From the NCBI GenBank assembly GCA_964467255.1, contig CAYXPR010000007.1, forward strand, positions 320 to 64,319: a stretch of DNA of 64,000 nt. Direction: 5' to 3'. Below, piece by piece: positions 6,229 through 64,000 of the stretch. The position numbers were made by a program, and so were the translations under genes. This DNA is from an uncultured Rickettsiales bacterium. Lineage in GTDB: Bacteria > Pseudomonadota > Alphaproteobacteria > Rickettsiales > RGZB01. The first letter of the stretch is position 1, and the number at the start of each line of letters is the position of its first letter. The notes beneath the pieces were generated by a model. That model was not told where the DNA came from, ran no database searches, and worked only from the letters and a program-made list of their open reading frames with translations.

Positions 6229-9200
6229 TTAGGGGCCTACTGGCTCTTTAAGCGGCGTACAACCCGTCGGATAGTCAATCGGCGGAGTCGCATTTGGGTC
6301 AGGAATCGGGTTTGGCACTGTCCACGTCGATATTAACTGGCCAAGTACGTTGTATGACGTACCACATTCATCGCGCAGACCGACACGGGGACCACAGTTG
6401 TTACCACAGCGATTATACTCAGCCTGAGCTTGTGATGTTGCTGTCGTGTGATCCGAGCCAGAGTTTCTAGCTTCAGTATACTTTGTATTCGCAAACTGCT
6501 GGCAGTTCACACACCCTGCATCAAATGTACATTCCGCTGGCGGAGAGGTTGCGGGCTCGGCGCAACAACCACCCCCTACAGAATAGTTTGGCGGATCTGA
6601 TGCTGCTCTGCAGCCAACCCATGTGCTGTTCGCCTGACTTGCACAGGTACCTTGATTGCCATAATCAATAAAGTCGCCCATGTCCCTGATACAGTTATAG
6701 TACACGTTGTTTGATTTTTCTTGGCATGTGCAGCCACCACCGCCGGAACTACCGCCGGAGCCGCCACCAGAACCACCGCCAGAGCCACCACCGGAACCGC
6801 CGCCAGAGCCACCACCGGAACCACCGCCAGAGCCACCACCGGAACCACCGCCAGAGCCACCACCAGAGCCACCACCGGAGCCGCCGCCAGAACCACCGCC
6901 AGAACCGCCACCAGAGCCACCACCCGAACCACCGCCAGAACCGCCACCCGAACCACCGCCGGAGCCGCCACCAGAACCACCGCCGGAGCCGCCACCAGAA
7001 CCACCGCCGGAGCCGCCACCGGAACCAGAACCAAAACCAGATGAGGAACCGCTACTTGGGTCTGGCGGCAAGTTCATTGCAGATGCTGCGGGAAGCAGAT
7101 TGCTGGCGGTTGTGCCAGGTATACGTTCATTACCACCACGCAATGCTTCCGGCGGCTCGCACATACCGGCTGCTGTTTTTAAGAACGTCATAACATCGTC
7201 AAAACGATACGTACCAATATTCATTGTTTCGATCGGATTGGCCGCCGTGTCTTTTGTAATTGGCTGAGGCGGTTTGCACGCGTAGGTAATATGGCCAGCA
7301 GCAGAACCTGCACCAGGGGCTGGAAGGAGGTTTAGGTAATTGCGGTAATACACACCGTCAATCTGCACGATTTTATTTTTGTGCTGGTCGGAATTATTGC
7401 TATCCAAACTTGGACGATAAACCTTTATGCGGCGCCAGTTTTTCTCCGAACAAACGCGTGCATCAGGGTCGCGGCAGTCTGGGTATGAACCGCCTTCGTG
7501 GATCGTACGTTTAGTAACCCTGTTCCACCTATCCGTATTGCCGCAAATGTCCTGGTTCTTGCCCCAGTTCGATTCACTGACTCGAACAAACTTCTCGCCT
7601 TTTTGGAATTTGCATGGCTCGTTAGGATCGTAGCCATTAAAGTCGTCCCCCGGGTCATTCGGAACAAAATTTCTTATCGTGCCGTAGGCGTAATAGCAAT
7701 CGGTTCCAGGCGGAACAGGCGATTGGTTACATGCAGGTTTTACCCATTTTTCGGGCTGCTTGGCATCCATCTTCAGGTTTTCGAACTGCGTGGTGCTCGT
7801 TGCCCTGTTGCGGGAATATGTCAGACTGTAAGGATTGCCAGGGTTATATCTTTCAAAGCCCACGCCCTCAACATATGCCATGTGTCTGCGGTAACGACCA
7901 TCCTTTGGTGAACCATCTGCGTTGCAACGTTCTTTACGCTCCTGCTCAGACATTGAGGGATTATCACACGCGTCTTGATGCGGCGTACCATCCCCATAGG
8001 TGGTGCCCGCTTGCAGAGCTTCGGTGATTGTTTCGTCCCATATCAGTAAGTCGCCTTTTTGCGCGCAGTCAAGGCCGCCAAATTTGCCCTGAATCGTGTA
8101 GTTCTGACCGGGTCTAAGCGTTCCGACTTCGTCATAATACTTACCAAATTCTATCGTGTTATTTGGTGCATAATATTCCCATAGGCGCGCTTTGACGTTA
8201 CCAGCATAGTTGATGCCGTCATTGGCAAAGTCGGGGCCCGCAAAACCACGCCACACAATCGGCCAAGGCAGCATGTCATAAATTGGCCTACCATCTCGGC
8301 CTGTTTTTACGGTGTTAAAGAACATGCCCCCACGAAGCATCGCATACCCTGTGGCGCTGCCGACCTTAAAGTTTTTGTTATAGTCGCAAATACAATTCAG
8401 GCCAAATTTGCGCATACAGCGCGCTTGGTAGAGCATCATTTCATACCAACCGCCAATCGCGCAACCACGAGGGCCAACAATGTTTTCTTTTTGACGTGCG
8501 GTGATAGCACTGTCCGAAGAAAACACGGTGCCGTCATAATTCGCACCCGTTACGGAGCGAGCAATAATCCCATAGGCTGTGTCGTAAACCTGAGCTGGCA
8601 CAGGGTTGTTAACAAATGTACCGTCCGCCAACCTTCTGGGTGTCGGCAATGGTACGTTTGGTGACATAAATGGTGCTTCCGTCCACTCATAGTGCATGTC
8701 ATAACGCTTGCCAGCTGGCGGTAATGGCAAATAGGCCAATAATTGAGGTTCCTCAAACATCCAGCGGAGATTATATTTTTTATCCAGACCTAATACCGGA
8801 CTTTCCAGTGCCAATTCATTCGGTGGAATAGTATGGCTAACGTCACGTTCGGAAATGGGGCACGCAAGGTCTCGTGCATTCCAGAAACATTTACGCCATG
8901 ACTCATAGTGCAGTTTGATATCCTTCTGTTTGCAATCCTCATATTCATCCATACCTTGGGTGCAAATATTGTCCTCGTAGCAACGGCAATAGAAGTTATA
9001 GCCTGTGCACACAAGGAAGGTTTGCGCAAAAATATAGTCAAAGCGCTCCATCCTGAAATTCAGAATGTCGATGTTTTTGTGAACGCGTTGCAGGTGGTCT
9101 TTCCACAGGTTGCAGCGTTCGTCGTAACAAAAGAATTGGGCAACGTCGCGGCCTGCCCACGGTGCACTTAAATCATTGGGGTAATCTACCGCAGGACGTG

Positions 9201-10896
9201 GGCTATATGGATGACAGATTTCGCGGATACGTTCGACTGTTTTAAGGTTGGTCGGGCCAAATGGATACCGCGCTTCACTCTCTGTTGGAGGCGTTGAGTC
9301 TTGTGGCACCCACGGCGCAAGGGTCGTTGAGTTTGCACTCTTAAAGAGCGGTACTTCAAAATCCAACGGGTTAATGTTAGACGGTGTGAATTGCGCAAAC
9401 CACGTGCCTGCATCATATGCGTCATTAAATACTTGCCCTGGATCGACAGGAACATCCGGCGGCTTATAGAAGCTTGTGGGTATCTTGGTCGCCTTTGAAG
9501 GAGTTCCCGGGCCATTATTATCCATCACCCAGTGACCATTTATGTTTTCCGGAACGTCTTCCTGGCAGAAACGGAGATAGTTATCGCAACCTTCCATATC
9601 TGGTCCACCGCAGTGCCTTGGACCGCCACTGCCGCCACCCTGTCCACAACGACTAACAGGCGAACCGTCGGTAAATTTACTGACCGTGCAACGCTGCATC
9701 TGAGGTTTACAATTTGGGTTCGCCTTGCATGGCGGAGGTTGAATCATGCGCCAATATGGCATTGGTGGATAATAGGGGAAGTAGTTCCCCTGCGCGTATT
9801 TTCGGTCATATGGTGCAGGCGTTCCATTTGCTGGGGCGCCAACACTAGGAGGATAACTACTCACGCAGCCTCTCATACCAAAATACATAGCATTGGTGGG
9901 GCGTGGGGCGTCCTCGTTTTCCGCATATTGAAACTTTAAATCTGGCGGGCGGGTTGGCGGCGGATTTAACAGCCGGTTCATGCATACTTTTTTCTCAACA
10001 TCAATAAAGCCCATTGTGTAGAAATTGATGGCATCCATCAGCTCACTCCGCATCGGCGTGCGCTGAATCAACTGACAGTCATTATAAGAAAGGTGTGTCG
10101 GCATATCCGGCATGGTGATTTGGCCGCAATCGCCGAGGAATGCCGCCTCCGATATATAAAGCTCTATACAGACTTTACGTTTATATTTTTGACCTGGTTG
10201 GCTAATAACATCTTGCAGGTGGCTTGGGTTGCCAACTGGGTCAAAGTTCTCTCTTAAGTACCAATTGGGGTTTTCCTTATCCGCCAGCGGCATATAGTGG
10301 TCGCTAGGGTTGATTAGCTTTACAATCTTACGCCCTTGCGGATCAGGAGGGCCACCGGGGGTTTCCGGCGTAGTGTCATTGTTGCGATACTCTCCGCCAG
10401 GCCTCAAAAAATATTTGCAAAATTCATCAACGTCGTCGATGTAGTCGTCCTTCGCGCAAGACTTTTTACCTGATTCCGTCAATTGCCCTGATACAAAGCT
10501 GTACCCTGCAGAACAGCTTGGATCAACGCGCAGAATCTGATCGTCCGGTATGCGCTTAAATTCGTACTCATCCTCACTTGGGTCACGCTTTTTGGTAAAA
10601 CGATATTCAGGGCGATAACAGCCCGTGATGTTTGGCCAATATTGCTCTAAGCCACCCTCGTAGAGCGGGCCTGAATATGATTTATCAAGACACTCCTGCT
10701 TGGTATCACCTTTTAAGTAAATGCATGGGTTAAGAAAATTAGAGTTTGCCGGCGGGGTGATACGATTCGGGATTTGGCACTGCGGTTCAGGGATATTTGC
10801 ATTGGCCGCATGGGGCTCTTTCGGCAACAAAACGAGCATAAGGGAAAGGGCTAATCCCCCCACTAATGCAGGTATCAGATGGCGTTTTTGTCGCAT
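6229..10896 (-). CDS. Giant secreted cysteine-rich protein of unknown family (1555 aa)
   Basis: One uninterrupted ORF. N-terminal signal peptide (MRQKRHLIPALVGGLALSLMLVLLPKEPHAANA) and no further TM segments. About 58 Cys by manual count; rich in P/Y/W/N/D/G. A 108-aa Gly/Ser tract is followed by a 167-aa C-terminal module with 14 Cys. I recognise no family. Confidence 0.85.
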   Translation of the reverse strand: MRQKRHLIPALVGGLALSLMLVLLPKEPHAANANIPEPQCQIPNRITPPANSNFLNPCIYLKGDTKQECLDKSYSGPLYEGGLEQYWPNITGCYRPEYRFTKKRDPSEDEYEFKRIPDDQILRVDPSCSAGYSFVSGQLTESGKKSCAKDDYIDDVDEFCKYFLRPGGEYRNNDTTPETPGGPPDPQGRKIVKLINPSDHYMPLADKENPNWYLRENFDPVGNPSHLQDVISQPGQKYKRKVCIELYISEAAFLGDCGQITMPDMPTHLSYNDCQLIQRTPMRSELMDAINFYTMGFIDVEKKVCMNRLLNPPPTRPPDLKFQYAENEDAPRPTNAMYFGMRGCVSSYPPSVGAPANGTPAPYDRKYAQGNYFPYYPPMPYWRMIQPPPCKANPNCKPQMQRCTVSKFTDGSPVSRCGQGGGSGGPRHCGGPDMEGCDNYLRFCQEDVPENINGHWVMDNNGPGTPSKATKIPTSFYKPPDVPVDPGQVFNDAYDAGTWFAQFTPSNINPLDFEVPLFKSANSTTLAPWVPQDSTPPTESEARYPFGPTNLKTVERIREICHPYSPRPAVDYPNDLSAPWAGRDVAQFFCYDERCNLWKDHLQRVHKNIDILNFRMERFDYIFAQTFLVCTGYNFYCRCYEDNICTQGMDEYEDCKQKDIKLHYESWRKCFWNARDLACPISERDVSHTIPPNELALESPVLGLDKKYNLRWMFEEPQLLAYLPLPPAGKRYDMHYEWTEAPFMSPNVPLPTPRRLADGTFVNNPVPAQVYDTAYGIIARSVTGANYDGTVFSSDSAITARQKENIVGPRGCAIGGWYEMMLYQARCMRKFGLNCICDYNKNFKVGSATGYAMLRGGMFFNTVKTGRDGRPIYDMLPWPIVWRGFAGPDFANDGINYAGNVKARLWEYYAPNNTIEFGKYYDEVGTLRPGQNYTIQGKFGGLDCAQKGDLLIWDETITEALQAGTTYGDGTPHQDACDNPSMSEQERKERCNADGSPKDGRYRRHMAYVEGVGFERYNPGNPYSLTYSRNRATSTTQFENLKMDAKQPEKWVKPACNQSPVPPGTDCYYAYGTIRNFVPNDPGDDFNGYDPNEPCKFQKGEKFVRVSESNWGKNQDICGNTDRWNRVTKRTIHEGGSYPDCRDPDARVCSEKNWRRIKVYRPSLDSNNSDQHKNKIVQIDGVYYRNYLNLLPAPGAGSAAGHITYACKPPQPITKDTAANPIETMNIGTYRFDDVMTFLKTAAGMCEPPEALRGGNERIPGTTASNLLPAASAMNLPPDPSSGSSSGFGSGSGGGSGGGSGGGSGGGSGGGSGGGSGGGSGGGSGGGSGGGSGGGSGGGSGGGSGGGSGGGSGGGSGGGSGGGSGGGSGGGSGGGSGGGSGGSSGGGGCTCQEKSNNVYYNCIRDMGDFIDYGNQGTCASQANSTWVGCRAASDPPNYSVGGGCCAEPATSPPAECTFDAGCVNCQQFANTKYTEARNSGSDHTTATSQAQAEYNRCGNNCGPRVGLRDECGTSYNVLGQLISTWTVPNPIPDPNATPPIDYPTGCTPLKEPVGP
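6733..7056 (-). repeat. In-frame tandem repeat encoding (GGGS)x22 within a 108-aa Gly/Ser tract
   Basis: 12-nt periodicity, core about 6758..7021. The unit count of 22 comes from ORF-length arithmetic in two frames. Units vary synonymously (Ser TCC/TCT/TCG, Gly GGT/GGC) while the peptide is perfect. Confidence 0.95.
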
Positions 10897-17815: not shown

Positions 17816-19021
17816 TTAAAGCCCCCCTAAATGGTCAGCCACGGTGAAGATGTCTTTATCGCCACGGCCGCAAATGTTCACCACAATCAGATGGTGCGGC
17901 GAAAGCGTGGGCGCCATGCGCATAACATGCGCAAGCGCGTGGCTTGGCTCAAGCGCGGGAATGATGCCTTCGGTGCGCGCACAGAGCTGTAGCGCAGCGA
18001 GGGCCTCTTTGTCAGTGGCGGAAACATAATTCACACGGCCAATATCATGCAGGTGCGCGTGTTCAGGGCCAATGCCCGGATAATCAAGCCCAGCGGAAAT
18101 GGAATGCGTCGGCAGCACCTGACCATCGGCATTTTGCAGTAAGTATGTGCGGTTACCATGTAGCACACCGACTTTGCCTTTGGCGATGGAAGCAGCCGTA
18201 TCTTTTGTGTTCACGCCCTTGCCTGCAGCTTCAACCGCATACATCTGCACCGATGTATCATCCAAGAACGGATGGAATAACCCGAGCGCGTTCGAACCAC
18301 CACCGATGCAAGCGACGAGCGAATCGGGCAAGCGGCCTTCGGCGTGCATCATTTGTTCTTTGGCTTCACGCCCGATGATGGACTGGAAGTCGCGCACCAT
18401 CATGGGGTATGGGTGCGGCCCCGCCGCCGTACCAATGAGGTAATACGTGTCGTGTACATTCGATACCCAATCACGCAGCGCTTCGTTCATGGCGTCTTTC
18501 AGTGTGCCGGAGCCAGCATCCACAGGGCGCACTTCAGCGCCCAGCAGCTTCATGCGGAATACGTTCGGCTTCTGGCGCTCCATATCTTTCGCGCCCATGT
18601 AGATAACGCACTTCAGGTTAAACAGCGCACACACCGTGGCGGTGGCAACGCCGTGCTGGCCTGCGCCGGTTTCCGCGATGATACGTTTTTTACCCATGCG
18701 GTTAGCGAGTAGAATCTGCCCGAGGCAGTGATTGATTTTATGCGCACCCGTGTGGTTTAGCTCGTCGCGCTTGAAATAAATTTTTGCGCCGCCTAAATGC
18801 TGCGTAAGACGCTCAGCATAAAATAGTGGGCTGGGGCGACCTGTGTAATGGCGATTGTAATAATCGAGCTCGGTGTGAAAGGATTGGTCCTGCTTGGCGG
18901 CTTCATACGCCTTCTCTACCTGCAGAATGAGCGGCATGAGCGTTTCCGCTACATAGCGGCCACCGTAAAGACCAAAATGCCCATCGGCATCCGGCGAGTT
19001 ATTTGAGCGACGTTCTACCAT
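17816..19021 (-). CDS. trpB: Tryptophan synthase beta chain
   Basis: 401 aa with PLP-lysine motif [11 protein letters not shown]. Confidence 0.97.
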
Positions 19022-29860: not shown

Positions 29861-31117
29861 ATGATGATAATACCGAAAAAAGCAGACCTTGATACCTATC
29901 TGACGCTGGATGAGCACGTTCAGCAAGGCAAGCTTATGCCCCCAGAAATCATGATGATTTTTGCCGCTGCGCCGGGCATGCCCAATTCAATCAATTGTCA
30001 TGACTGTGGAGTGGAACAGGCCAAAGCCAATTGGCGGGATTATCTGGAAAACCACACCGATAAGCATACGCGTTTAAAACCCAAAAGATTTTCTGAGCTT
30101 TATGAGCTTGATAGCCAAATCCGCGGAGGCCAAGCCGCCGTAGACTGGATGGTGGAAGACTTCCACACGATGGCAGAAATTAACCCCACCGTGGCTAACT
30201 CCTTTGCCAAAGGCGGGCAGCGTATTCTCTTCACTGCTGACAGCAGCATCATGGGGAGCGTTGGGATATGCTCGCACTATTTTGTTATAAAAGGACTGAT
30301 GTACGATATTTCCTATCCTATAGAACTGGCGGATTATAGACCCTATATTGCTTTGCCATTTACCGACAATGTGCTGGTGCATGAGATGGGGCATGGCTTT
30401 GATGCATATCTGCGCCACACCAATGCGCCTGTGTTTGAAACCCTCGTAACACTGGACAGGAACAGCCCCAAAACCTCTAGCAGCGACAAAAACAAAGAGC
30501 GCAGCCTTGCTGACCAATTGTGGATGATTATGGTCACGCGCCATAACAACACATACACTGATAACAGCCGCTCAAGCCTTTCAGAACAATTCGCGATTTG
30601 CAGTGAATATTTTTTCGGCAATAAGGAGGCACAGCCGGAACGCTCCCCAATGCTAGCCGCCTATTTTAATGATGTGGTGCTGCTAAGCCTTGAGATTATT
30701 GCATCTGATTTGCCAAAGGCAGCAAAGCTCGAAGGGCTACGTATGCTGAAAGAGACAATCCACGAGCCGCCTGAAAAATACTTCGGAGCAGATGGCGTTG
30801 ATATTTTTGCTAAAATGGCTGAGCGGCAAAGGTACCGCGCTGAAATGCCTTTAGGCCGTTCCAACGAACCTTTTTTTGAAGCGGATGATACATTGCTCGG
30901 AAAATTAAATGCCGCCGCGCATGCGACGCGCCATGATGACACGCCACATGTCCGCGCACTCAAAGACCGCGAATCTGCGAAAGCCTACGATGCGGTAGAA
31001 AAAACATTGGTCGAGGGCTTTGCCGCTGTTCGGCGCGATGTGATGGAAAAAATCGGACTCGAACTAACCCGTGAGCAGGAATCCTGCCACCTCAAATTAA
31101 GTGCGATTAAGCGTTAG
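29861..31117 (+). CDS. HExxH zincin metallopeptidase-like protein (MtfA/M90-like core), no signal peptide
   Basis: 418 aa. VLVHEMGHGFD is followed about 60 aa later by SEQFAICSEYFFG, resembling the HExxH...EFFAxxSExFF pattern of MtfA-type zincins. The C-terminal about 150 aa are helical and charged. Confidence 0.55.
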   Translation: MMIIPKKADLDTYLTLDEHVQQGKLMPPEIMMIFAAAPGMPNSINCHDCGVEQAKANWRDYLENHTDKHTRLKPKRFSELYELDSQIRGGQAAVDWMVEDFHTMAEINPTVANSFAKGGQRILFTADSSIMGSVGICSHYFVIKGLMYDISYPIELADYRPYIALPFTDNVLVHEMGHGFDAYLRHTNAPVFETLVTLDRNSPKTSSSDKNKERSLADQLWMIMVTRHNNTYTDNSRSSLSEQFAICSEYFFGNKEAQPERSPMLAAYFNDVVLLSLEIIASDLPKAAKLEGLRMLKETIHEPPEKYFGADGVDIFAKMAERQRYRAEMPLGRSNEPFFEADDTLLGKLNAAAHATRHDDTPHVRALKDRESAKAYDAVEKTLVEGFAAVRRDVMEKIGLELTREQESCHLKLSAIKR

Positions 31118-32893: not shown

Positions 32894-33008
32894 GGTGTAA
32901 TCTACTGAAATACCTATGGTTTATAAAACGCCTGTATTAAAATGAAACAGATTAAGTTATTGTTTATTAACAAAAAGTTACCTTTTTTACAAAATGGTAG
33001 TGTTTCCG

Positions 33009-33023
33009 TTAATAAAATGTTAA
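33009..33023. promoter_or_regulatory. Perfect CtrA box TTAA-N7-TTAA in the fliI/ctrA divergent region
   Basis: TTAATAAAATGTTAA about 80 nt upstream of ctrA. A second near-match, TTAACAAAAAGTTAC, lies at 32967..32981. Confidence 0.6.
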
Positions 33024-33102
33024 CATTTATACTATAGCGTGCTTTTGGTTAGGATAGCCACTTTCTGAACCTAAGTGCAACAAAATAGAGGGGGAGTTTG
33101 GG

Positions 33103-33909
33103 ATGCGAGTACTTCTGGTAGAGGATGATCCGTCGACAGCCAAATCTATTGAACTCGCGTTGGCATCTGAGGGTATCGTCTGCGATACCGCCGCGCTGGG
33201 TGAAGAAGGGTTGGAAATCGGCCAACTTTATGATTACGACATTGTAATCCTCGACATGATGCTCCCTGATATTGATGGTTTCGAAGTACTGCGCCGTTTC
33301 CGCGCAAATAAAATTAAAACTCCCATTCTTATTCTTTCCGGCTTAAATGGTTCTGACAGCAAAATCCGCGGCCTTGGCATCGGTGCTGACGACTATGTTA
33401 CCAAGCCGTTTAATAAAGGTGAGCTGGTAGCCCGTATTCAGGCGATTGTTCGCCGTTCTAAAGGTCATTCTGAATCTGTTATCCGCACCGGTAAGGTCAC
33501 CATTAATATGGATGAACGCTCGGTGGTGGTGGATAACAAGCCGCTGCACCTGACGAGCAAGGAATATGCGATTCTTGAGCTGCTTTCCTTACGCAAAGGT
33601 ACGCCGATTACCAAAGAAATGTTCCTCAACCACCTGTATGGCGGCATTGATGAACCTGAACTGAAAATTATCGACGTGTTCGTGTGTAAGCTGCGCAAAA
33701 AATTGCAGGATGCCGCTGAAGGCGAAAATTATATCGAAACACTCTGGGGACGTGGTTACATTATGCGTGACCCTGAAACCGGTAAAGAACAAGAAGCTTC
33801 AGGTGCTGCCAAAGCCTCTGCTGGCAAAGCCACGGTCAATAAAGCCGCTGCTGCCCCTGCAGGCAAAGGTACGCCGAAAAAAAAGCAAGCACTGCTGGCT
33901 GAAGCTTAG
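33103..33909 (+). CDS. ctrA: Cell-cycle response regulator CtrA with about 40-aa Ala/Lys/Pro-rich C-terminal extension
   Basis: OmpR-family regulator, MRVLLVEDD...[10 protein letters not shown]...[12 protein letters not shown], typical of CtrA. RBS AGAGGGGGAG. The tail is [42 protein letters not shown]. Confidence 0.9.
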
Positions 33910-41737: not shown

Positions 41738-41757
41738 AGTATATAACCTCATTAAAG

Positions 41758-41772
41758 TTAAGCAGGGTTTAA
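41758..41772. promoter_or_regulatory. TTAA-N7-TTAA (CtrA-type) motif in the pepA/lptF divergent region
   Basis: TTAAGCAGGGTTTAA. This is motif occurrence only. Confidence 0.3.
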
Positions 41773-57656: not shown

Positions 57657-59015
57657 TTATTTCTTCTTTCTGGGTTTTGATTTTCGTAGCGCCTGAGCAC
57701 GGCCCACCACATTCTTCTGTGGCATGGCGTTAATGGCAAGGCCACCGGCCGGAACATCTTTTAATATGGTGCTGCCCGCACCCGTGATTGCCCCCTTGCC
57801 CACTTTTACCGGAGCCACAAGGCTGGTGTTTGAGCCGATGAAGGCATCTTCGCCGATAACAGTTTTGTGTTTATTCACACCGTCGTAATTGCAGGTGATG
57901 GTGCCTGCACCGATATTACTGTTTGCCCCCACATCCGCATCCCCCACATAAGAAAGGTGGTTGATTTTTGCGCCCTTGCCGATTTTAGATTTTTTGATTT
58001 CAACAAAATTACCGATGTGCGCCCCCTCGCCGATTTCAGCACCCGGGCGGATGCGTGCATAAGGCCCCACAACAGCGTTTTTCTTGATAATCGCTTGATC
58101 GATGTGGCTGAAAGATTTTATTTCGACATCATCTTCTACCTTCACGCCATCGCCGAATACAACATACGGATGGATGACAACATCTTTACCGATTTTCGTA
58201 TCGTGGCGAAGGTGGATGGTTTCTGCACTGATGAGCGTTGCACCCCCCAGCATCGCCGCTTCGCGCAGGCGCTGCTGAACGATAGATTCACCCACCGCAA
58301 GTTCAGCGCGGTTGTTAATGCCCATCACTTCAAGTTCATCCGCTTCAGCCACCACGCAAGCATAACCTTGCACGCGTGCAATCTTCACGAGGTCGGTTAA
58401 ATAATACTCGCCCTTGCTGTTATCGTTCTTCACTTGTGACAAGAGAGAATCCAAAAGTTCAGACCGCACCGCCATCACGCCGGAGTTGCACAAGGTGATA
58501 GCACGCTCTGCCTCGCTTGCTTCTTTATATTCTACGATGGCATTCAGCATACCGAAATCGCCCAGCACCAAGCGGCCATATTCACCCGCGTTAGCAGGCG
58601 TAAAGCCGAGCACCGCAAGCGCAGCATGTGATTCTTTTTGAATGGCATCAATCATGCGCTGCAAGGTAGCAGGGCTGATAAATGGTGTATCGCCATATAA
58701 GATAAAGGTGATGCCAGACTTGCCCATGTGCTTTAAGGCAGACTTCACCGCATCCGCCGTGCCGAGCTGCTTTTGCTGAATGGCGATTTTTGCTTTCGGC
58801 AGGCAGCGTGCCACTTCGGCTTCCACCGCCTTCATGCCGTTTGCCAGCACTACCGACGTATTCACGGCTTTCAGTGACTTCACTGTTTCCAGCACATAGG
58901 CCAGCATGCTGCGGCCTGCAATTTCATGCAGCACTTTTTCGCGCACGGATTTCATACGCGTGCCTTTGCCCGCTGCAAGGATAATTGCCTGAATGGGAAG
59001 CGATGTTTTTGCCAT
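57657..59015 (-). CDS. glmU: Bifunctional GlcNAc-1-P uridyltransferase / GlcN-1-P acetyltransferase
   Basis: Start MAKTSLPIQAIILAAGKGTRMKS at 59015. C-terminal left-handed beta-helix. Confidence 0.95.
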   Translation of the reverse strand: MAKTSLPIQAIILAAGKGTRMKSVREKVLHEIAGRSMLAYVLETVKSLKAVNTSVVLANGMKAVEAEVARCLPKAKIAIQQKQLGTADAVKSALKHMGKSGITFILYGDTPFISPATLQRMIDAIQKESHAALAVLGFTPANAGEYGRLVLGDFGMLNAIVEYKEASEAERAITLCNSGVMAVRSELLDSLLSQVKNDNSKGEYYLTDLVKIARVQGYACVVAEADELEVMGINNRAELAVGESIVQQRLREAAMLGGATLISAETIHLRHDTKIGKDVVIHPYVVFGDGVKVEDDVEIKSFSHIDQAIIKKNAVVGPYARIRPGAEIGEGAHIGNFVEIKKSKIGKGAKINHLSYVGDADVGANSNIGAGTITCNYDGVNKHKTVIGEDAFIGSNTSLVAPVKVGKGAITGAGSTILKDVPAGGLAINAMPQKNVVGRAQALRKSKPRKKK

Positions 59016-59107
59016 AGTAAATAATGAATAAAACCGGTTGAGGTCTGGGTGGCAAGAGCATATGTTCATGGCAGGGAATTGCCAACATATATTTGTTAGT
59101 CGCGCAT

Positions 59108-60388
59108 ATGGAATTTTTTGCTGCCGTTATCCTTGCCGCCGTTTTCGCCGGAGCCCTTGGCTTCATGGTGGGGCAGCGCCGCACCGAAAAAAAGGCGCAT
59201 ACGCTGGAAATTAAACTGGCGGAAGAAACTCAACTGAAAGAAGCCGTGCAGCGGGACTTCGCCGCCGCTAGCGCCGAAAGCAAAAACGCACGCGAAAAGC
59301 GCGACCAGCTCGCCGAAGAAGCCGCCGCACTTAAAGCACGCTGCGCCACGCTCGAGGAAAACCTGCCCTCGCAGTTTGAAAACCTTGCTAACAAAGTGCT
59401 GGAGCAAAGTAGCCAGAAACTTTCTAAAACATCGGAAGAAAATCTGGGTCAGCTTTTAAACCCCTTGAAAGACCGTCTCGCCGAATTCCAGAAGAAGGTG
59501 GATGACACTTACAATGCAGAAGCCCGCGAACGCTTCGCGTTGAAAAATGAAATCGAAAAAATTGTAAATACAAATGAGAGCTTAACGAAGGCGTTGCGTG
59601 GCAGCAGCAAGGCGCAAGGCAACTGGGGGGAATATATTCTCACCAAATTACTGGAAGATTCCGGCCTGCGCGAAGGCGTGGAGTTCACCACACAAGGGCG
59701 TGATTTAAAAATCAAAGGTGCTGATGGTCAGCATTTGCAGCCGGACGTCATTTTGAATCTGCCGGACAGCAAACATCTTGTTATCGATTCTAAAGTTTCG
59801 CTCACACACTATGAACAATTTGTGAACGCCGAAAATGAAAGCAGCAAAAAACAGGCGCTGGACTTGTTCATTAACTCGGTACGTGCGCATGTGAAAGGGC
59901 TGGCTGAAAAAGATTACGCCTCTGCTGAGCGTATGAGTTCTCCGGATTTTGTATTCCTGTTTATGCCGATGGAAGGCGCGCATTCACTCGCGCTTCAGTC
60001 TGACAACGAGCTCTTTCAGTTTGCGTGGGACAAACGCATTGTGCTTGTTTCACCAACGACACTCATGGCTTCGCTGCGCACCGTTGCTTCGTTGTGGAAA
60101 ATGGATAAACAAAATCGCAACACGCTGGAAATCGCACGCCAGGGCGGCGCACTCTATGATAAATTTGTTGGCTTTGTTGAGAGCATGGAAAACATTGGCA
60201 CGCATCTTGGGCGTTCACAAAAAGCATACGATGACGCATACAGCAAATTGAAGGACGGGCGCGGGAATTTAATCACCAGTTCCGAAAAATTACGCGAATT
60301 AGGTGCAAAGACCAGCAAGTCCATCCCTGAAAAACTGCTCTCGGACACGGATGAAACCGAGAAAAAAGCCTTAGAAAGCGCATCCTAA
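59108..60388 (+). CDS. rmuC: DNA recombination protein RmuC
   Basis: N-terminal TM, long coiled coil, then RmuC nuclease-like C-domain (PDFVFLFMP...VSPTTL). Confidence 0.88.
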   Translation: MEFFAAVILAAVFAGALGFMVGQRRTEKKAHTLEIKLAEETQLKEAVQRDFAAASAESKNAREKRDQLAEEAAALKARCATLEENLPSQFENLANKVLEQSSQKLSKTSEENLGQLLNPLKDRLAEFQKKVDDTYNAEARERFALKNEIEKIVNTNESLTKALRGSSKAQGNWGEYILTKLLEDSGLREGVEFTTQGRDLKIKGADGQHLQPDVILNLPDSKHLVIDSKVSLTHYEQFVNAENESSKKQALDLFINSVRAHVKGLAEKDYASAERMSSPDFVFLFMPMEGAHSLALQSDNELFQFAWDKRIVLVSPTTLMASLRTVASLWKMDKQNRNTLEIARQGGALYDKFVGFVESMENIGTHLGRSQKAYDDAYSKLKDGRGNLITSSEKLRELGAKTSKSIPEKLLSDTDETEKKALESAS

Positions 60389-60423
60389 GCCACTGATTTT
60401 TCAATTTTATCTTTATTTGCAAT

Positions 60424-60451
60424 AAAATTAGTTAAAATCTTAACTAATTTT
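60424..60451. promoter_or_regulatory. Perfect 12-bp inverted repeat, AT-only; weak rmuC terminator and/or operator
   Basis: AAAATTAGTTAA-AATC-TTAACTAATTTT. It contains TTAA-N4-TTAA and, with 60451..60454, a TTAA-N7-TTAA (60440..60454). Confidence 0.5.
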
Positions 60452-60500
60452 TAACCACCTCAGTTGCATAATTACAACATCACTTGTTTCTTGTTCCGTA

Positions 60501-60566
60501 GGACAAATTGCTAATGTCCACCGGGACAAGCAAACTACGGACAGGTTGCAACCGTGATGACTGTCC
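60501..60566. promoter_or_regulatory. Cluster of five GGACA/TGTCC repeats forming two hairpins or operator pairs in the leader of the GC-rich ORF
   Basis: GGACA at 60501, 60524 and 60539; TGTCC at 60515 and 60562. Pairs are GGACA-N9-TGTCC and GGACAG-N16-CTGTCC. The second encloses the 10-bp palindrome GGTTGCAACC (60544..60553). Confidence 0.6.
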
Positions 60567-60643
60567 CTGACACTGCCCTACTACCCCCCAAACCAAATTC
60601 ATACGGGGGAAACGGGCTCTACACCTTTGAAAGGGGTGTTACG

Positions 60644-60943
60644 ATGGCGAAGACTCTGGCCGACCTCCAGAACGACGTGCGCAAGAACGTGGCGACCGGC
60701 ATCCAGACGGTGATCGACGAGATCGGTGACATGAAGGCGAAGGACTTCCACGCCGTGGAAGGCCTCGCCGGCTACCTCAACCGACTGGTCGCGCTCGTCG
60801 AAGTCCTCAACAAGGGCAACGACGTGCACATCCGCCTGCAGGATGAAGGCAAGTACGACGATCGCTCGAACAAGACCGTCTACTACACGTACGCCACGGT
60901 CGAGATCCCCGCGAAGGCGAAGGACAACACGGCGACGAGCTGA
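60644..60943 (+). CDS. Orphan 99-aa protein with extreme GC3, unknown family
   Basis: ATG 60644 has GAAAGGGG upstream. 91 of 99 third codon positions are G/C by manual count, against about half in neighbouring genes and in the 30 in-frame codons upstream. Predicted helical N-terminal half, then beta-like DVHIRLQ / TVYYTYATVEIP. Confidence 0.7.
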   Translation: MAKTLADLQNDVRKNVATGIQTVIDEIGDMKAKDFHAVEGLAGYLNRLVALVEVLNKGNDVHIRLQDEGKYDDRSNKTVYYTYATVEIPAKAKDNTATS

Positions 60944-61017
60944 GTAGGAACCGGACCTTGAGTCCAAACCGCGCTGTGCCGTATGCACAGAACCGATTAC
61001 GCTAACGCGTGATTGGG

Positions 61018-61042
61018 GACCCACCTAACAAGGTGGGTCTTT
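61018..61042 (+). terminator. Hairpin terminator after the GC-rich ORF
   Basis: GACCCACC-TAACAA-GGTGGGTC then TTT (short U tract). An additional hairpin, CTGTGC-CGTAT-GCACAG, lies at 60974..60990. Confidence 0.6.
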
Positions 61043-61053
61043 CGCCATGACTG

Positions 61054-61500
61054 CTATTCTGTTTTGGTGCAATCACCGAGGCGCTTACCGATGATGCTGG
61101 TCACCGATTTTTCTGTGCCGGAAATGGCCACTATCTCAACCTTGTAAGAATCAGCACTATAGGTGGCTTCCATTTTGCTAGACGTGCCGTCCTTGCAGGA
61201 AGACTCCATCATCGACTTTCCGTCATCCGCATTAAACTTTATTTTGCAGTCGCCGTCATTTGACTCGAAACTGCCCTTTTTCCCGTAATTAGGCGCATAC
61301 ACACCCAGCTGATCACTGGCCTCTGCCGCACCCATGCAGTTTGTTGTTTTAAACTCAGTGGGCGCGCCACCAGAGCCTTCAGAGCGCATCACCATTTCCC
61401 ATTCACCGGCGCGCAGCGCTCCATCTTTATCCGCTGCAGCACAAAAAGGAAACAGCACCATAGCAGAAGCTATGAGCAACCATTTTTGAAACATATTCAC
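61054..61500 (-). CDS. Secreted small protein, DUF3617-like
   Basis: 148 aa with signal peptide MNMFQKWLLIASAMVLFPFCAA. The GEWEM motif and four spaced Cys resemble the DUF3617 pattern. This is recall only. Confidence 0.45.
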   Translation of the reverse strand: MNMFQKWLLIASAMVLFPFCAAADKDGALRAGEWEMVMRSEGSGGAPTEFKTTNCMGAAEASDQLGVYAPNYGKKGSFESNDGDCKIKFNADDGKSMMESSCKDGTSSKMEATYSADSYKVEIVAISGTEKSVTSIIGKRLGDCTKTE

Positions 61501-61583
61501 CTCTCTCGGGCGAGGACGTTATCAAAAATATTTCTAAGAAAAAACTACAGAAATTTATAGCTATTTAGAACCCTAAAATTCGC

Positions 61584-64000
61584 TTAATAAACAATCTGGC
61601 AGGACTCTTTTAGATCGACCACCATGCGGCAGAAATTCTCCGCATCGGGCTGTGGAATCGTGCGGGTACTAATGCGATACACGCCTGTTTCTTGTGTCTT
61701 CTCAATGACGAGATTGGACTTATTCAGCAGCACGCCATATTTACTGGCATAGAAGCGCTCTTTACTGGCCAGCGCATCACCATAATTCGTGAACCCGCCA
61801 AACACGGCGCGGGCACCACCGGATGGATTTGCCCTTAATGGCACATCAGGAACCGCTGTTGTGGCAGCTGGAGGTGTAACAACAGTAGGCGGGAGCGGAT
61901 TGGGAAGAACGGGTGCGTCATCACCCTCACCCATTGAAATCACCATATCGCCCGCTGCGGGCATGTTGGGCGAAGGTGTGGTGCCATCTTCCCGCAGGAA
62001 AATGTCGCGCGTGGCGAATGACTCACTGTTATTAGTAATATCTACCGCAACGGCATTTTCCTGAACAAGGCTCATCTTCTTTAAATCCGCGGCTGAAACA
62101 CGAAGACTATATTTTCCGGGTAGCACTTTTTCAAAAATAAAGAACCCATCAAACTCTGACGAAACCGATTTGACCACCTGCCCTTGAGCATCCACCAACT
62201 CAACCAGAACACTTGAGAGTGTGGATTCAAAATTCTGTCCATCCTGTACCGTGCGGGCATATACGGTGCCATCAATATCGCTTGTCATTGCCAATAAGAA
62301 ATCAACTTCGGTGATGCTGCCAGGGCGGCCGACAACGGAATAACCATCTTCATAAGGCATCCACAACGGGTCTGGCAGAGACGCTTTGTTTAATTCAACA
62401 GCGGTGGGTTGGTATGTCGGCACGCCCGTTACAAATGCCGTATCCCCTTTATCGAACATGTAAGTGCGCGACCCCACTTTATACGTGAGTGCTTCATCCA
62501 CCAGCGTGTCGGTTTTATCGATCTGCTTGTTCTGGTTATTATCCACAAATGTTCGGGCGCTAACCGCCCCGAGCGATGCAATATTTTTGCTACTCGTATA
62601 CAGAGTATTATCCATTGGGTCACGCGCCAGAGAAAACCCAAGGCGCGCAAAAACCTGCGTTTCCCCTTGGTCATCTACCTCACCTTCAAGACTCACTTTA
62701 TAATCTGTTAAATCCCAGATAAGGCTATTCCTGATGCGCGTGGAATTATCCTGAAAGCCTTTTTCAATGTCGATTTTATCAGTCAGCTTTTGAGTCAGGT
62801 TGCGCTGGAAAGAAACGCTGAAGCGTTCTAAATCCTGCACAGGGCGAATGGTATAATCTAACACCGTGCGGATAATCCACTGCCATGCGCTGCCCCTAAG
62901 CGAAAGGCTGCCAAAATAATTGTCCGTGCTGTCTTGAATGCTGGCCGCAATGCGGTTGCTGATACCAATGCCGCCTACTGCCGTGCTAAGGCGATTTTCC
63001 AGCGTTTGGCGTTCACCGGATTCCAATGACTCATTCTTCAGATTAAAGCTGATATTGGCGTAGGGAACAATAAACGCGGGCACAGATGTACCAACATCCA
63101 GCTCCGTAATGCTGCTGGGCAGCGGCGTAAGTCTATCGTTTTCTTCACTGGAAAATTCATCGGAATAGAAACGCTGTTCGAGCTTTAAGCTGATGTCATC
63201 AAAACCCGTAACCAAGGTTGTTTTTGTTCCCCATTCCCCCTCTTCATCGCCCGCCACATCCATGCTCACAATCGTGCCAAGCACCGAGGTGCGTAAGCCG
63301 GAAGAGGCCAAATTCCTTACACCGCCAATGAGTGGTGTGGAGGCAAAACCCAGAATGCCCGTGACGGAATCCGTAATACCATATTGTGCCTGCGCTACAT
63401 ATCGCATGTCTTCTGAGTGTCGAACGGGGTCGTCATCTGTTCCGAGGAATGACTTCGATTTTTCGTCGACCGAGATTGAATAGTTCACGATGCCTTTTTT
63501 CAGGAGCTCGTCGCCAATGTTATACTGGCGGACTTCTTCACGGATTTGACCCTGTGGCCCATAAAAAACAAGGCGAAAAATGTTATTCCCGTATAAGAGC
63601 GGAATATTTAGAAATTCATAACGGCCATCCGTTGCCACTTGTTGCAAATCCAGCAGCACATCGTTGCGGTACAGTTCTACGTCCCACGATACAGTGCTAT
63701 CCCCCACGATGTTAATGCGGTCAAACACCACGCCTTCACGCAGGGCCGCATTTGAAACCATCGCACCACGCCCCAAGCTGGTGGCAGCGATAAGCGGAAT
63801 AGAAACAGAATTGATATCGCCAAAATTAAAGTCTGTGGCATCCAGCGGCCCTAACAAACCACCATCGATATCCTTACGGCCCAAGTTTAACCTTGCGGAA
63901 TCGATGCTTTCATCGCTTGTGCCTGAAATGAACGCCTGCGTGCTGAGATAACCTAAGTCACCGCCACCTGCCATTGAATATTCACTGACAAAGTTGCTCT
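61584..64000 (-). CDS. Large usher-like beta-rich envelope protein with Pro-rich linker and C-terminal SPOR-like domain (5' end probably outside the window)
   Basis: The frame stays open upstream of ATG 63974 to the window edge. Plug-like segment DVELYRNDVLLDLQQVATDGRYEFLNIPLLYGNNIFRLVFYGPQGQ. CarboxypepD_reg-like DGFFIFEKVLPGKYSLRV. SPOR-like tail ARAVFGGFTNYGDALA...GVYRISTR. Confidence 0.5.
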   Translation of the reverse strand, partial: SNFVSEYSMAGGGDLGYLSTQAFISGTSDESIDSARLNLGRKDIDGGLLGPLDATDFNFGDINSVSIPLIAATSLGRGAMVSNAALREGVVFDRINIVGDSTVSWDVELYRNDVLLDLQQVATDGRYEFLNIPLLYGNNIFRLVFYGPQGQIREEVRQYNIGDELLKKGIVNYSISVDEKSKSFLGTDDDPVRHSEDMRYVAQAQYGITDSVTGILGFASTPLIGGVRNLASSGLRTSVLGTIVSMDVAGDEEGEWGTKTTLVTGFDDISLKLEQRFYSDEFSSEENDRLTPLPSSITELDVGTSVPAFIVPYANISFNLKNESLESGERQTLENRLSTAVGGIGISNRIAASIQDSTDNYFGSLSLRGSAWQWIIRTVLDYTIRPVQDLERFSVSFQRNLTQKLTDKIDIEKGFQDNSTRIRNSLIWDLTDYKVSLEGEVDDQGETQVFARLGFSLARDPMDNTLYTSSKNIASLGAVSARTFVDNNQNKQIDKTDTLVDEALTYKVGSRTYMFDKGDTAFVTGVPTYQPTAVELNKASLPDPLWMPYEDGYSVVGRPGSITEVDFLLAMTSDIDGTVYARTVQDGQNFESTLSSVLVELVDAQGQVVKSVSSEFDGFFIFEKVLPGKYSLRVSAADLKKMSLVQENAVAVDITNNSESFATRDIFLREDGTTPSPNMPAAGDMVISMGEGDDAPVLPNPLPPTVVTPPAATTAVPDVPLRANPSGGARAVFGGFTNYGDALASKERFYASKYGVLLNKSNLVIEKTQETGVYRISTRTIPQPDAENFCRMVVDLKESCQIVY

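Follow-up and report, generated by a model that had tools for sequence, protein, structure and literature searches.

The 64-kb stretch of DNA analysed here, referred to below as the window, comes from an uncultured Rickettsiales-like alphaproteobacterium and carries a short cluster of GGACA repeats between rmuC (59093-60388; Pfam RmuC, E = 1.6e-96) and ORF99 (60644-60943), a gene for an orphan protein beyond which lies a convergent DUF3617 gene. The pentamer occurs on the plus strand at 60501, 60524 and 60539 and as TGTCC at 60515 and 60562, that is, five copies within 60501-60566. The closest genome record is a metagenome-assembled genome of a 'Rickettsiales bacterium' (ME2015-09-01), whose RmuC is 92% identical; the next RmuC relative (L006, 59% identity) comes without the cassette. 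We propose that the repeats are arms of helices in an RNA leader that is predicted to adopt two mutually exclusive folds.

The GGACA cluster is real and non-random. The coordinates given in a preliminary description of this DNA were rechecked against the letters of the window and are all correct. It had counted five copies of GGACA or its complement in 66 nt, as we do, and had put the chance expectation at roughly 0.1; because the window holds 51 GGACA/TGTCC sites on both strands (vs 90 in dinucleotide shuffles), the figure is ~0.05 per 66 nt. Within the cluster the motif is enriched over shuffled sequence, one of the points on which the observation had been said to stand or fall. When all 5-mers were scanned in all 66-nt windows, the other five-copy cases were mainly homopolymer or dinucleotide runs and two repetitive coding tracts, with a few scattered 5-mers besides (e.g. 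GCGCA at 17913 and AATTG at 29968). The spaced pairs GGACA-N9-TGTCC (60501-60519) and GGACAG-N16-CTGTCC (60539-60566) are also present as described. A preference for G or T immediately 5' of four of the five copies had been reported as well: the preceding bases are A, G, C, T and G, which makes three of five, and only two copies read (G)GGACA. Three features had been overlooked, namely a degenerate sixth arm, UGUUCC (60493-98), whose partner is GGGACA (60523-28), a third possible hairpin, UGUCC-ACCG-GGACA (60515-28), and the second global fold to which it leads. Elsewhere in the window, a long minus-strand ORF (6229-10896, 1555 aa) contains a long run of CCACC/CCGCC-type repeats at 6700-7000, where a 5-mer also reaches 5-6 copies per 66 nt; this run encodes a low-complexity tract, Gly-rich judging by the complementary GGN codons.

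The locus was compared between three lineages: the window, L001 (with the near-copies L002-L005, L185 and L187) and L061. All three carry it in the same synteny, and whole-database ORF99 searches, RmuC/DUF3617 neighbour searches and contig look-ups brought the total to no more than these three. Between lineages, rmuC and the DUF3617 gene show a synonymous divergence (dS) of 0.7-1.4, which is near saturation, and a ratio of nonsynonymous to synonymous divergence (dN/dS) of 0.04-0.09. Two segments of the locus carry zero substitutions across the three lineages: 60467-60542 (76 nt) and 60953-61045 (93 nt), the latter downstream of ORF99. The open frame that crosses the conserved leader nucleotides is not the same in the window and in L001, and the leader is therefore not coding. 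On the same difference of frame we rejected an N-terminal extension of ORF99 from GTG 60554.

Plus-strand RNA from each of the three lineages folds into a common architecture, built from stem-loops (SL) I and II in one fold (fold A) and from a single hairpin in the other (fold B):

60479-60566 (88 nt), plus strand: predicted bistable RNA element that contains all five GGACA/UGUCC copies, as indicated by folding, shuffles and the pattern of variation.
60486-60535, plus strand: SL-I, a two-tier hairpin of fold A, with helices GUUU:AAAC, CUUGUUCCG:CGGGACAAG (one U-G pair) and GGACA:UGUCC, and the loop AAUUGCUAA.
60539-60566, plus strand: SL-II, a hairpin of fold A with the stem GGACAG:CUGUCC; L061 has GGACGG, giving a G-U pair.
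60479-60558, plus strand: fold B, a single long hairpin with the loop ACCG (60520-23), predicted in all three lineages.

In each lineage the minimum-free-energy structure is fold A, which represents ~30% of the ensemble for a 91-nt piece. Each of the five GGACA/UGUCC copies forms one arm of a helix, and UGUUCC counts as a degenerate sixth because CUUGUUCCG pairs with CGGGACAAG, the outer helix enclosing GGACA-AAUUGCUAA-UGUCC. The 5' end is single-stranded in this fold and CUGUCC (60561-66) is paired. Folding of the 5' part is well beyond that of shuffled sequence (z = -3.7 to -5.0 in the three lineages), and the plus strand folds better than the minus strand (-33.1 vs -28.4 kcal/mol) because of its U-G and G-U pairs. 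The stems are preserved between lineages and the indels fall in junctions and loops. Together with the change to a G-U pair in SL-II and the retention of a downstream hairpin described below (SL-IV), these results support one of the readings offered in the preliminary description, that of a structured 5' untranslated region (UTR).

Fold B was revealed by forcing the UGUCC-ACCG-GGACA hairpin. It consists of six helices, H1 AUCAC:GUGAU, H2 UUG(U):(G)CAA, H3 CUUGU:ACAGG, H4 CCGUAG:CUACGG, H5 UUGCU:AGCAA and H6 UGUCC:GGACA. The three GGACA-type and three UGUCC-type arms are interchangeable, so that two folds are possible, and the two are mutually exclusive: fold B pairs the first nucleotides (AUCAC with GUGAU) and frees CUGUCC. 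The segments that pair with the 5' end in this fold, CAA and GUGAUG, are conserved and lie within the SL-II loop of fold A. The predicted unpaired probability of the 5' end is 0.5-0.9 in A vs 0.10-0.18 in B; for CUGUCC it is ~0 in A in the window and L001 (0.36 in L061) and ~0.3 in B (0.31 in L061). In the full leader, fold B lies 0.4 (window), 3.9 (L001) and 0.3 (L061) kcal/mol above fold A. We defined the second state as the best structure sharing no pair with the minimum-free-energy structure and compared it with that of 500 dinucleotide shuffles. The native 87-nt element reaches -32.3 kcal/mol in A (z = -4.1) and -29.5 kcal/mol in B (z = -5.8); the second state of the shuffles lies at -15.9 +/- 2.3 kcal/mol and none of the 500 is as low as the native value. 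Four controls (the 3' UTR, SL-III/IV and two coding pieces) had no significant second state (z2 -1.4 to +0.6).

The pattern of variation, counted on an indel-aware alignment of the element, is compatible with both folds. Only 3 of the 76 positions (of 88) that are paired in A or B vary, vs 4 of the 14 columns that are unpaired in both (Fisher p = 0.01). The only substitution inside a repeat, A60543G in L061, keeps pairing in both folds, turning A-U into G-U with U60564 in fold A and U-A into U-G with U60492 in fold B. What looks like variability of the SL-II loop amounts to three small indels at fold-B bulges, CAA and GUGAUG being retained. The loops and linkers of SL-I are also invariant, as the dual constraint of two folds would explain. 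The modelling thus shows that two exclusive, near-isoenergetic folds exist in silico in three lineages, that they are statistically exceptional given the composition, and that the sequence changes fit both, as would be expected of an RNA of the switch type.

Downstream of the element, the leader contains a C6 run (60584-89), a G5 run (60605-09), ACACC (60621-25), GGTGT (60635-39) and the Shine-Dalgarno sequence GAAAGGGG (60629-36), which, with a small upstream open reading frame (uORF), gives the following features:

60575-60617, plus strand: SL-III, GCCC:GGGC around C4-5:G4-5; the loop varies in sequence and length between lineages, and z is about -0.9, not significant on energy alone.
60621-60639, plus strand: SL-IV, ACACC(UUU):(AGG)GGUGU, -6.7 kcal/mol, covering the G-run of the Shine-Dalgarno sequence.
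60565-60604, plus strand: C-rich, G-poor tract, rut-like in composition, from which a rut-like function might be read; partly sequestered by SL-III.
60514-60570, plus strand: uORF MSTGTSKLRTGCNRDDCP, with invariant start and first 10 codons and a length that is not conserved.

A hairpin able to occlude the ribosome-binding site had been suggested, and SL-IV is indeed kept in 3/3 lineages despite different sequence, loop and stem lengths. ORF99 has its own Shine-Dalgarno sequence and ATG. The GC skew over 60400-60599 is -0.32, the most negative value within the profiled 58000-64000. A scan of 60300-61200 for intrinsic terminators found no terminator-like site, and no hairpin of the leader is followed by a U-tract; with no GC-rich hairpin before a U-tract, the leader does not fit a transcriptional attenuator or riboswitch. 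As the preliminary description had it, the uORF is 18 codons long in the window, but it does not behave as a conserved leader peptide: it has 13 codons in L001 and is fused in frame to ORF99 in L061 (P0003). To judge from this comparison, the uORF probably does not serve as a leader peptide. Its stop codon and the 3' arm of SL-II mark the start of the C-rich tract, and Rho-dependent attenuation was considered as a possibility.

Upstream, the spacer between rmuC and ORF99 holds candidate promoter elements:

60424-60451, no strand: AT-only inverted repeat, perfect over 12+12 bp, AAAATTAGTTAA-AATC-TTAACTAATTTT, just past rmuC and largely kept in L001, L187 and L061.
60440-60455, plus strand: CtrA-box-like TTAA-N7-TTAAC, then TTAACCAC; candidate activator site.
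60467-60542, plus strand: invariant 76-nt block, opening with CATAAT (60467-72), a candidate -10 hexamer.

From this arrangement we infer that transcription starts near A60479, where H1 begins. A consensus scan found no canonical sigma-70 promoter, and inspection by eye for LexA (GTTC-N7-GTTC), Pho box, sigma-54 and EcfG promoter motifs found none. The CtrA-type box overlaps the 28-bp AT-rich palindrome (60424-60451), which might serve as a weak terminator of rmuC or as the binding site of a protein, and ends 12 nt upstream of the invariant block. The window and L187 have the box exactly, and L001 and L061 each depart from it at one position, so that one half-site is mutated in 2/4 sequences. 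TTAA-N7-TTAAC occurs four times at three loci of the window vs 0.53 expected, always in intergenic DNA (33008-33024, 41757-41772 and 60440-60455). The first of these boxes is double and palindromic and has a fliI-like ATPase gene on one side and, on the other, ctrA, which scores as the CtrA equivalog (33103-33909; NF045991, 396.6 bits, cutoff 350); the second lies between pepA-like and lptF/G-like genes. A box upstream of the putative start and a ctrA gene in the same window are the sequence signs of a candidate member of the CtrA regulon, and this link suggests cell-cycle or developmental control.

The remainder of the cassette is the gene and what follows it:

60644-60943, plus strand: ORF99, a 99-aa orphan protein; GC content at third codon positions (GC3) 0.91, dN/dS 0.67-0.87.
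60944-61048, plus strand: 3' UTR, GUAGGAA and then hairpins at 60953-65, 60974-90, 60993-61016 and 61017-40; z = -6.4.

ORF99 looks compositionally foreign and seems to evolve almost neutrally. Its GC3 compares with 0.40-0.65 for the window's other ORFs of at least 150 aa (genome GC3 ~0.55) and stays at 0.86-0.91 across lineages, even where the amino acids differ completely. Amino-acid identity is 61-64%, dN/dS is about 1 in the C-terminal third and dS is below that of the neighbours; the start, the stop (TGA or TAA) and the frame across a 6-nt indel are conserved in all lineages. The GC3 of rpsP is 0.50 and no high-GC donor for ORF99 was found among 5.8 billion proteins; neither translational selection nor recent transfer accounts for the GC3 of ORF99. 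Whole-database protein searches (5.8 and 1.8 billion proteins) returned only 3 relatives, all in the same synteny, and searches of Pfam, PHROGs, NCBIfam and PDB sequences gave no match; AlphaFold2 models are of low confidence (predicted local distance difference test, pLDDT, 53-63). An antisense ORF (60599-61024) is open in the three lineages and was rejected as a shadow of the GC3-rich frame, not conserved. In the 3' UTR, the last hairpin (61017-40) is terminator-like and is followed by UUUCG, a U-tract too weak for the terminator scan. The minus strand of the 3' UTR folds more weakly, the region has no second state (z2 = -1.1), and its pairing with the 5' UTR is no better than in shuffles. 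Its opening GUAGGAA echoes the GUAGGAC of SL-I, and one of its loops has GCUAA, as does the SL-I loop. Perfectly conserved UTRs around a near-neutral, foreign-looking orphan ORF are an unusual pattern in their own right.

On balance, and with modest confidence, we favour the view that the GGACA repeats form the central part of a ~165-nt structured 5' leader of the ORF99 mRNA whose first 88 nt would be bistable, forming a lineage-restricted, two-state cis-regulatory RNA. Transcription would begin near A60479 from a promoter with a CtrA box and SL-I would fold first, co-transcriptionally. Some input, for which temperature, a protein, a small RNA (sRNA) or a ligand are candidates, would then move the balance between A and B, and this shift would alter the exposure of the 5' end, and with it mRNA decay, as well as the availability of CUGUCC and of the C-rich tract. 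SL-IV, a separate hairpin, would keep the ribosome-binding site partly occluded and damp translation. Because the accessibility of the Shine-Dalgarno sequence and AUG does not depend consistently on the fold, the output would most likely be mRNA stability or access of a trans-acting factor or Rho, not unmasking of the ribosome-binding site. If the two-fold state is true, an uncultured Rickettsiales-like clade that has hardly been sampled would possess a cis-regulatory RNA not described before. The case would also illustrate that a small group of repeats does not have to be a set of protein-binding sites but may consist of helix arms that can replace one another.

Several observations count against a two-state leader. 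The absence of a consistent difference between A and B at the Shine-Dalgarno sequence and AUG is one of them. Conservation in homologous loci, which the preliminary description had wished to see alongside covariation, is found, but with three lineages and an invariant core no pair has changed on both sides, so that double compensatory covariation is absent. The start at A60479 is deduced from sequence, and an RNA beginning at or after 60486 could not form H1 and H2 of fold B. In L001, the gap of 3.9 kcal/mol would strongly favour fold A at equilibrium. A partner that recognises the sequence of the block could instead be what keeps it invariant, and the nested palindromes are present at the DNA level too.

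The element would work much like known bistable leaders, and its fold B resembles 5'-terminal stabiliser hairpins, but it is a member of none of these systems and matches no Rfam family. A permissive Rfam 15 cmscan of 59500-62000 (E up to 10) returned nothing inside 60471-61050; the sole matches, mir-84 and RgsA, are spurious, lie in the AT-rich spacer and score far below the gathering threshold. Scanned with a covariance model of the element, neither the 64-kb window nor 20 related loci yielded another copy; the cassette had no BLAST match among annotated phage and plasmid records, and literature searches for the motif turned up nothing relevant. The attenuators of ermC and cat, the refolding of hok and the thermosensor of the cspA 5' UTR are likewise leaders in which complementary segments are reused in exclusive folds, one of which forms first in transcription, and they share a separate hairpin over the ribosome-binding site. 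The present leader has no sequence or Rfam similarity to any of these. It lacks a conserved leader peptide, an intrinsic terminator and an antisense partner, and what distinguishes its folds is the state of the 5' end and of CUGUCC and not that of the Shine-Dalgarno sequence. Membership of the ermC/cat-type translational attenuators was rejected on the unconserved length of the uORF and on its Shine-Dalgarno sequence and AUG, which are paired in A. The 5' stabilisers (hp1 of the ompA 5' UTR and the Bacillus aprE and ermC leaders) also place a stable hairpin only a few nucleotides from the 5' end, here a putative one, and fold B would pair the very first nucleotides, as do known stabilisers that protect from 5'-end-dependent decay. 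Known stabilisers are simple hairpins, with no competing fold and with loops that are not conserved to the nucleotide.

Other resemblances concern the promoter and the repeats themselves. The CtrA promoters of alphaproteobacteria (TTAA-N7-TTAAC) are matched by the exact box 12 nt upstream of the block and by the ctrA gene of the window with its own box; the position of the box relative to the -10 is only putative, and it lies outside 60498-60570 and gives no account of the GGACA repeats. CsrA/RsmA leaders likewise contain several GGA-bearing repeats. Here no GGA lies in a hairpin loop or in an ANGGA/CANGGA context, none overlaps the Shine-Dalgarno sequence, and GAAAGGGG is itself without GGA. 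The GGA of every GGACA is in a helix arm in fold A, and fold B partly exposes the first copy only, in an internal loop; with the triplets in stems, the repeats do not fit CsrA sites. As in the repetitive extragenic palindromic (REP) sequences and bacterial interspersed mosaic elements (REP/BIME, REPIN), GTAG/CTAC flank the hairpins ('GUAG-GACA...UGUC' and 'CUAC-GGACAG...CUGUCC'). The element is single-copy in the 64-kb window and the 20 related loci and therefore does not fit REP elements; no gene for a REP-associated tyrosine transposase (RAYT) was seen, and the position is the same in three diverged genomes.

A static structured leader, which we consider rather unlikely, would do without a second state: SL-I would be a 5'-proximal stabiliser of the ompA type, SL-II and SL-III spacers and SL-IV a damper of translation, with fold B incidental to the reuse of helices. 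The invariance of SL-I would then be owed to a sequence-specific RNA-binding protein or sRNA, an assumption to which we give the same limited credit. Such a leader agrees with fold A being the minimum-free-energy structure in every lineage and the one that would form first in transcription, and with the conservation of SL-IV; moreover the 3' UTR is equally invariant without a second state, so that invariance here need not imply bistability. Yet it leaves unexplained a second state so far beyond shuffles (z = -5.8), the conservation of CAA and GUGAUG in the SL-II loop with indels placed at fold-B bulges, and a sole repeat substitution that is neutral for both folds. The preliminary description had also raised the possibility of a DNA operator array, in which GGACA/TGTCC half-sites would bind a dimeric transcription factor controlling the ORF99 promoter. 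Inverted and direct copies of one 5-mer near a promoter would suit it, as would the invariance of 60467-60542 as DNA, and for the invariant part of SL-I conservation alone cannot separate a DNA from an RNA model. Proteins that read such half-sites may exist, for TGTCCC-NN-GGGACA arrays are common in high-GC phage contigs; these arrays were found with a purpose-built pattern, however, and have no ORF99 relative nearby. The probable -10 is upstream of the sites, whose centres are irregular (14, 9, 15 and 23 nt apart) and do not follow helical repeats. The spacing of GGACAG and CTGTCC, 16 bp in the window and L001, becomes 15 bp in L061, where GGACGG breaks the DNA 5-mer and its palindrome while RNA pairing is kept. 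The 10-bp palindrome GGTTGCAACC is there, at 60544-60553, but it finds no support as a functional site, reading GGTTCAAC in L001 and GATTCAATC in L061. Finally, several helices depend on U-G or G-U pairs, and the opposite strand folds worse. We therefore regard an operator array as very unlikely.

Attenuation through the uORF is hardly probable at all. Ribosomes translating MSTGTSKLRT... from AUG 60514 would remodel the hairpins, as in ermC/cat, or mask the rut-like tract, as in tnaC. An AGGA precedes this start codon by 10 nt, neither the AUG nor the first 10 codons vary, alternative hairpins exist, and in the window the stop codon (60568-70) adjoins the C-rich tract 60565-60604. Against this, the frame runs for 18 codons in the window, 13 in L001 and reads through into ORF99 in L061, and the invariance of the first codons is already accounted for by RNA pairing. 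The Shine-Dalgarno sequence and AUG of the uORF are paired in A, and in B the AUG is still largely paired, an internal loop taking up part of the AGGA. No intrinsic terminator is present in the leader, and the choice between A and B does not consistently alter access to the main Shine-Dalgarno sequence. It is also quite unlikely, in our opinion, that the 570-nt transcript (60479-61048) is mainly a regulatory or dual-function RNA of the RNAIII/SgrS type, its 5' and 3' domains acting in trans and ORF99 being secondary. The UTR blocks are 100% identical vs 61-64% for the protein, ORF99 combines a dN/dS of 0.67-0.87 with a synonymous divergence below that of its neighbours, and strong structure is predicted for the 3' UTR (z = -6.4). 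The start, stop, frame across the 6-nt indel and GC3 (0.86-0.91) of ORF99 are all kept, however, neither a target nor a complementary sequence came to light, shuffles give 5'-3' duplexes as good as the native one, and there is no Rfam match. A bolder proposal, which we advance as a speculation and rate as unlikely, takes the whole as an expression cassette in which two ultra-conserved RNA modules, the two-state 5' switch and the four-hairpin 3' domain, would be the selected function and the protein a diversifying payload, its ORF held open and at a GC3 of about 0.9 while its amino acids change almost neutrally. The modules might then be sensor or regulatory RNAs, or a handle for dedicated RNA-binding or processing machinery, and the 5' element would found a new class of bistable leaders of Rickettsiales-like bacteria, responsive to a ligand, a protein or temperature; we hold this equally speculative.

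A third block of the locus, an alignment window of 40 nt at 61513-61552, is also identical in the three lineages. It lies in an AT-rich region upstream of the DUF3617 gene (minus strand) and is probably the promoter or leader of that gene. Past the DUF3617 gene, synteny with L001 (6977-7838) stops (window 61584-63974): in the window there follows an ORF of 796 aa that contains SdrD_B and CarboxypepD_reg-like domains, and in L001 ORFs of 163 and 61 aa and then recR.

Pattern scans of wider sequence collections were made with the repeat arrangement. In metagenomes, TGTTCC-N3-GGACA-N6-12-TGTCC-N2-CGGGACA matched only three unrelated high-GC soil contigs, with the hairpin between convergent genes, matches that arise from the way in which the pattern was constructed. 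In viral sequences, GGACA-N9-TGTCC-N4-GGACA mainly returned arrays of the TGTCCC-NN-GGGACA palindrome in phage contigs, mostly of 58-69% GC. None of these arrays has an ORF99 relative nearby, and we judge them a by-product of the search. The arrays (loci L065-L184; e.g. L089 5943-5979, L071 111-252 and L094 4706-4788) repeat a 14-bp palindrome, usually every ~23 bp with 9-bp spacers, and look like iterons or operators of a phage DNA-binding protein. That of L089 lies ~45 nt downstream of a segment matching a gene of Burkholderia phage Magia, which is annotated as 'replication protein' in one of two records.

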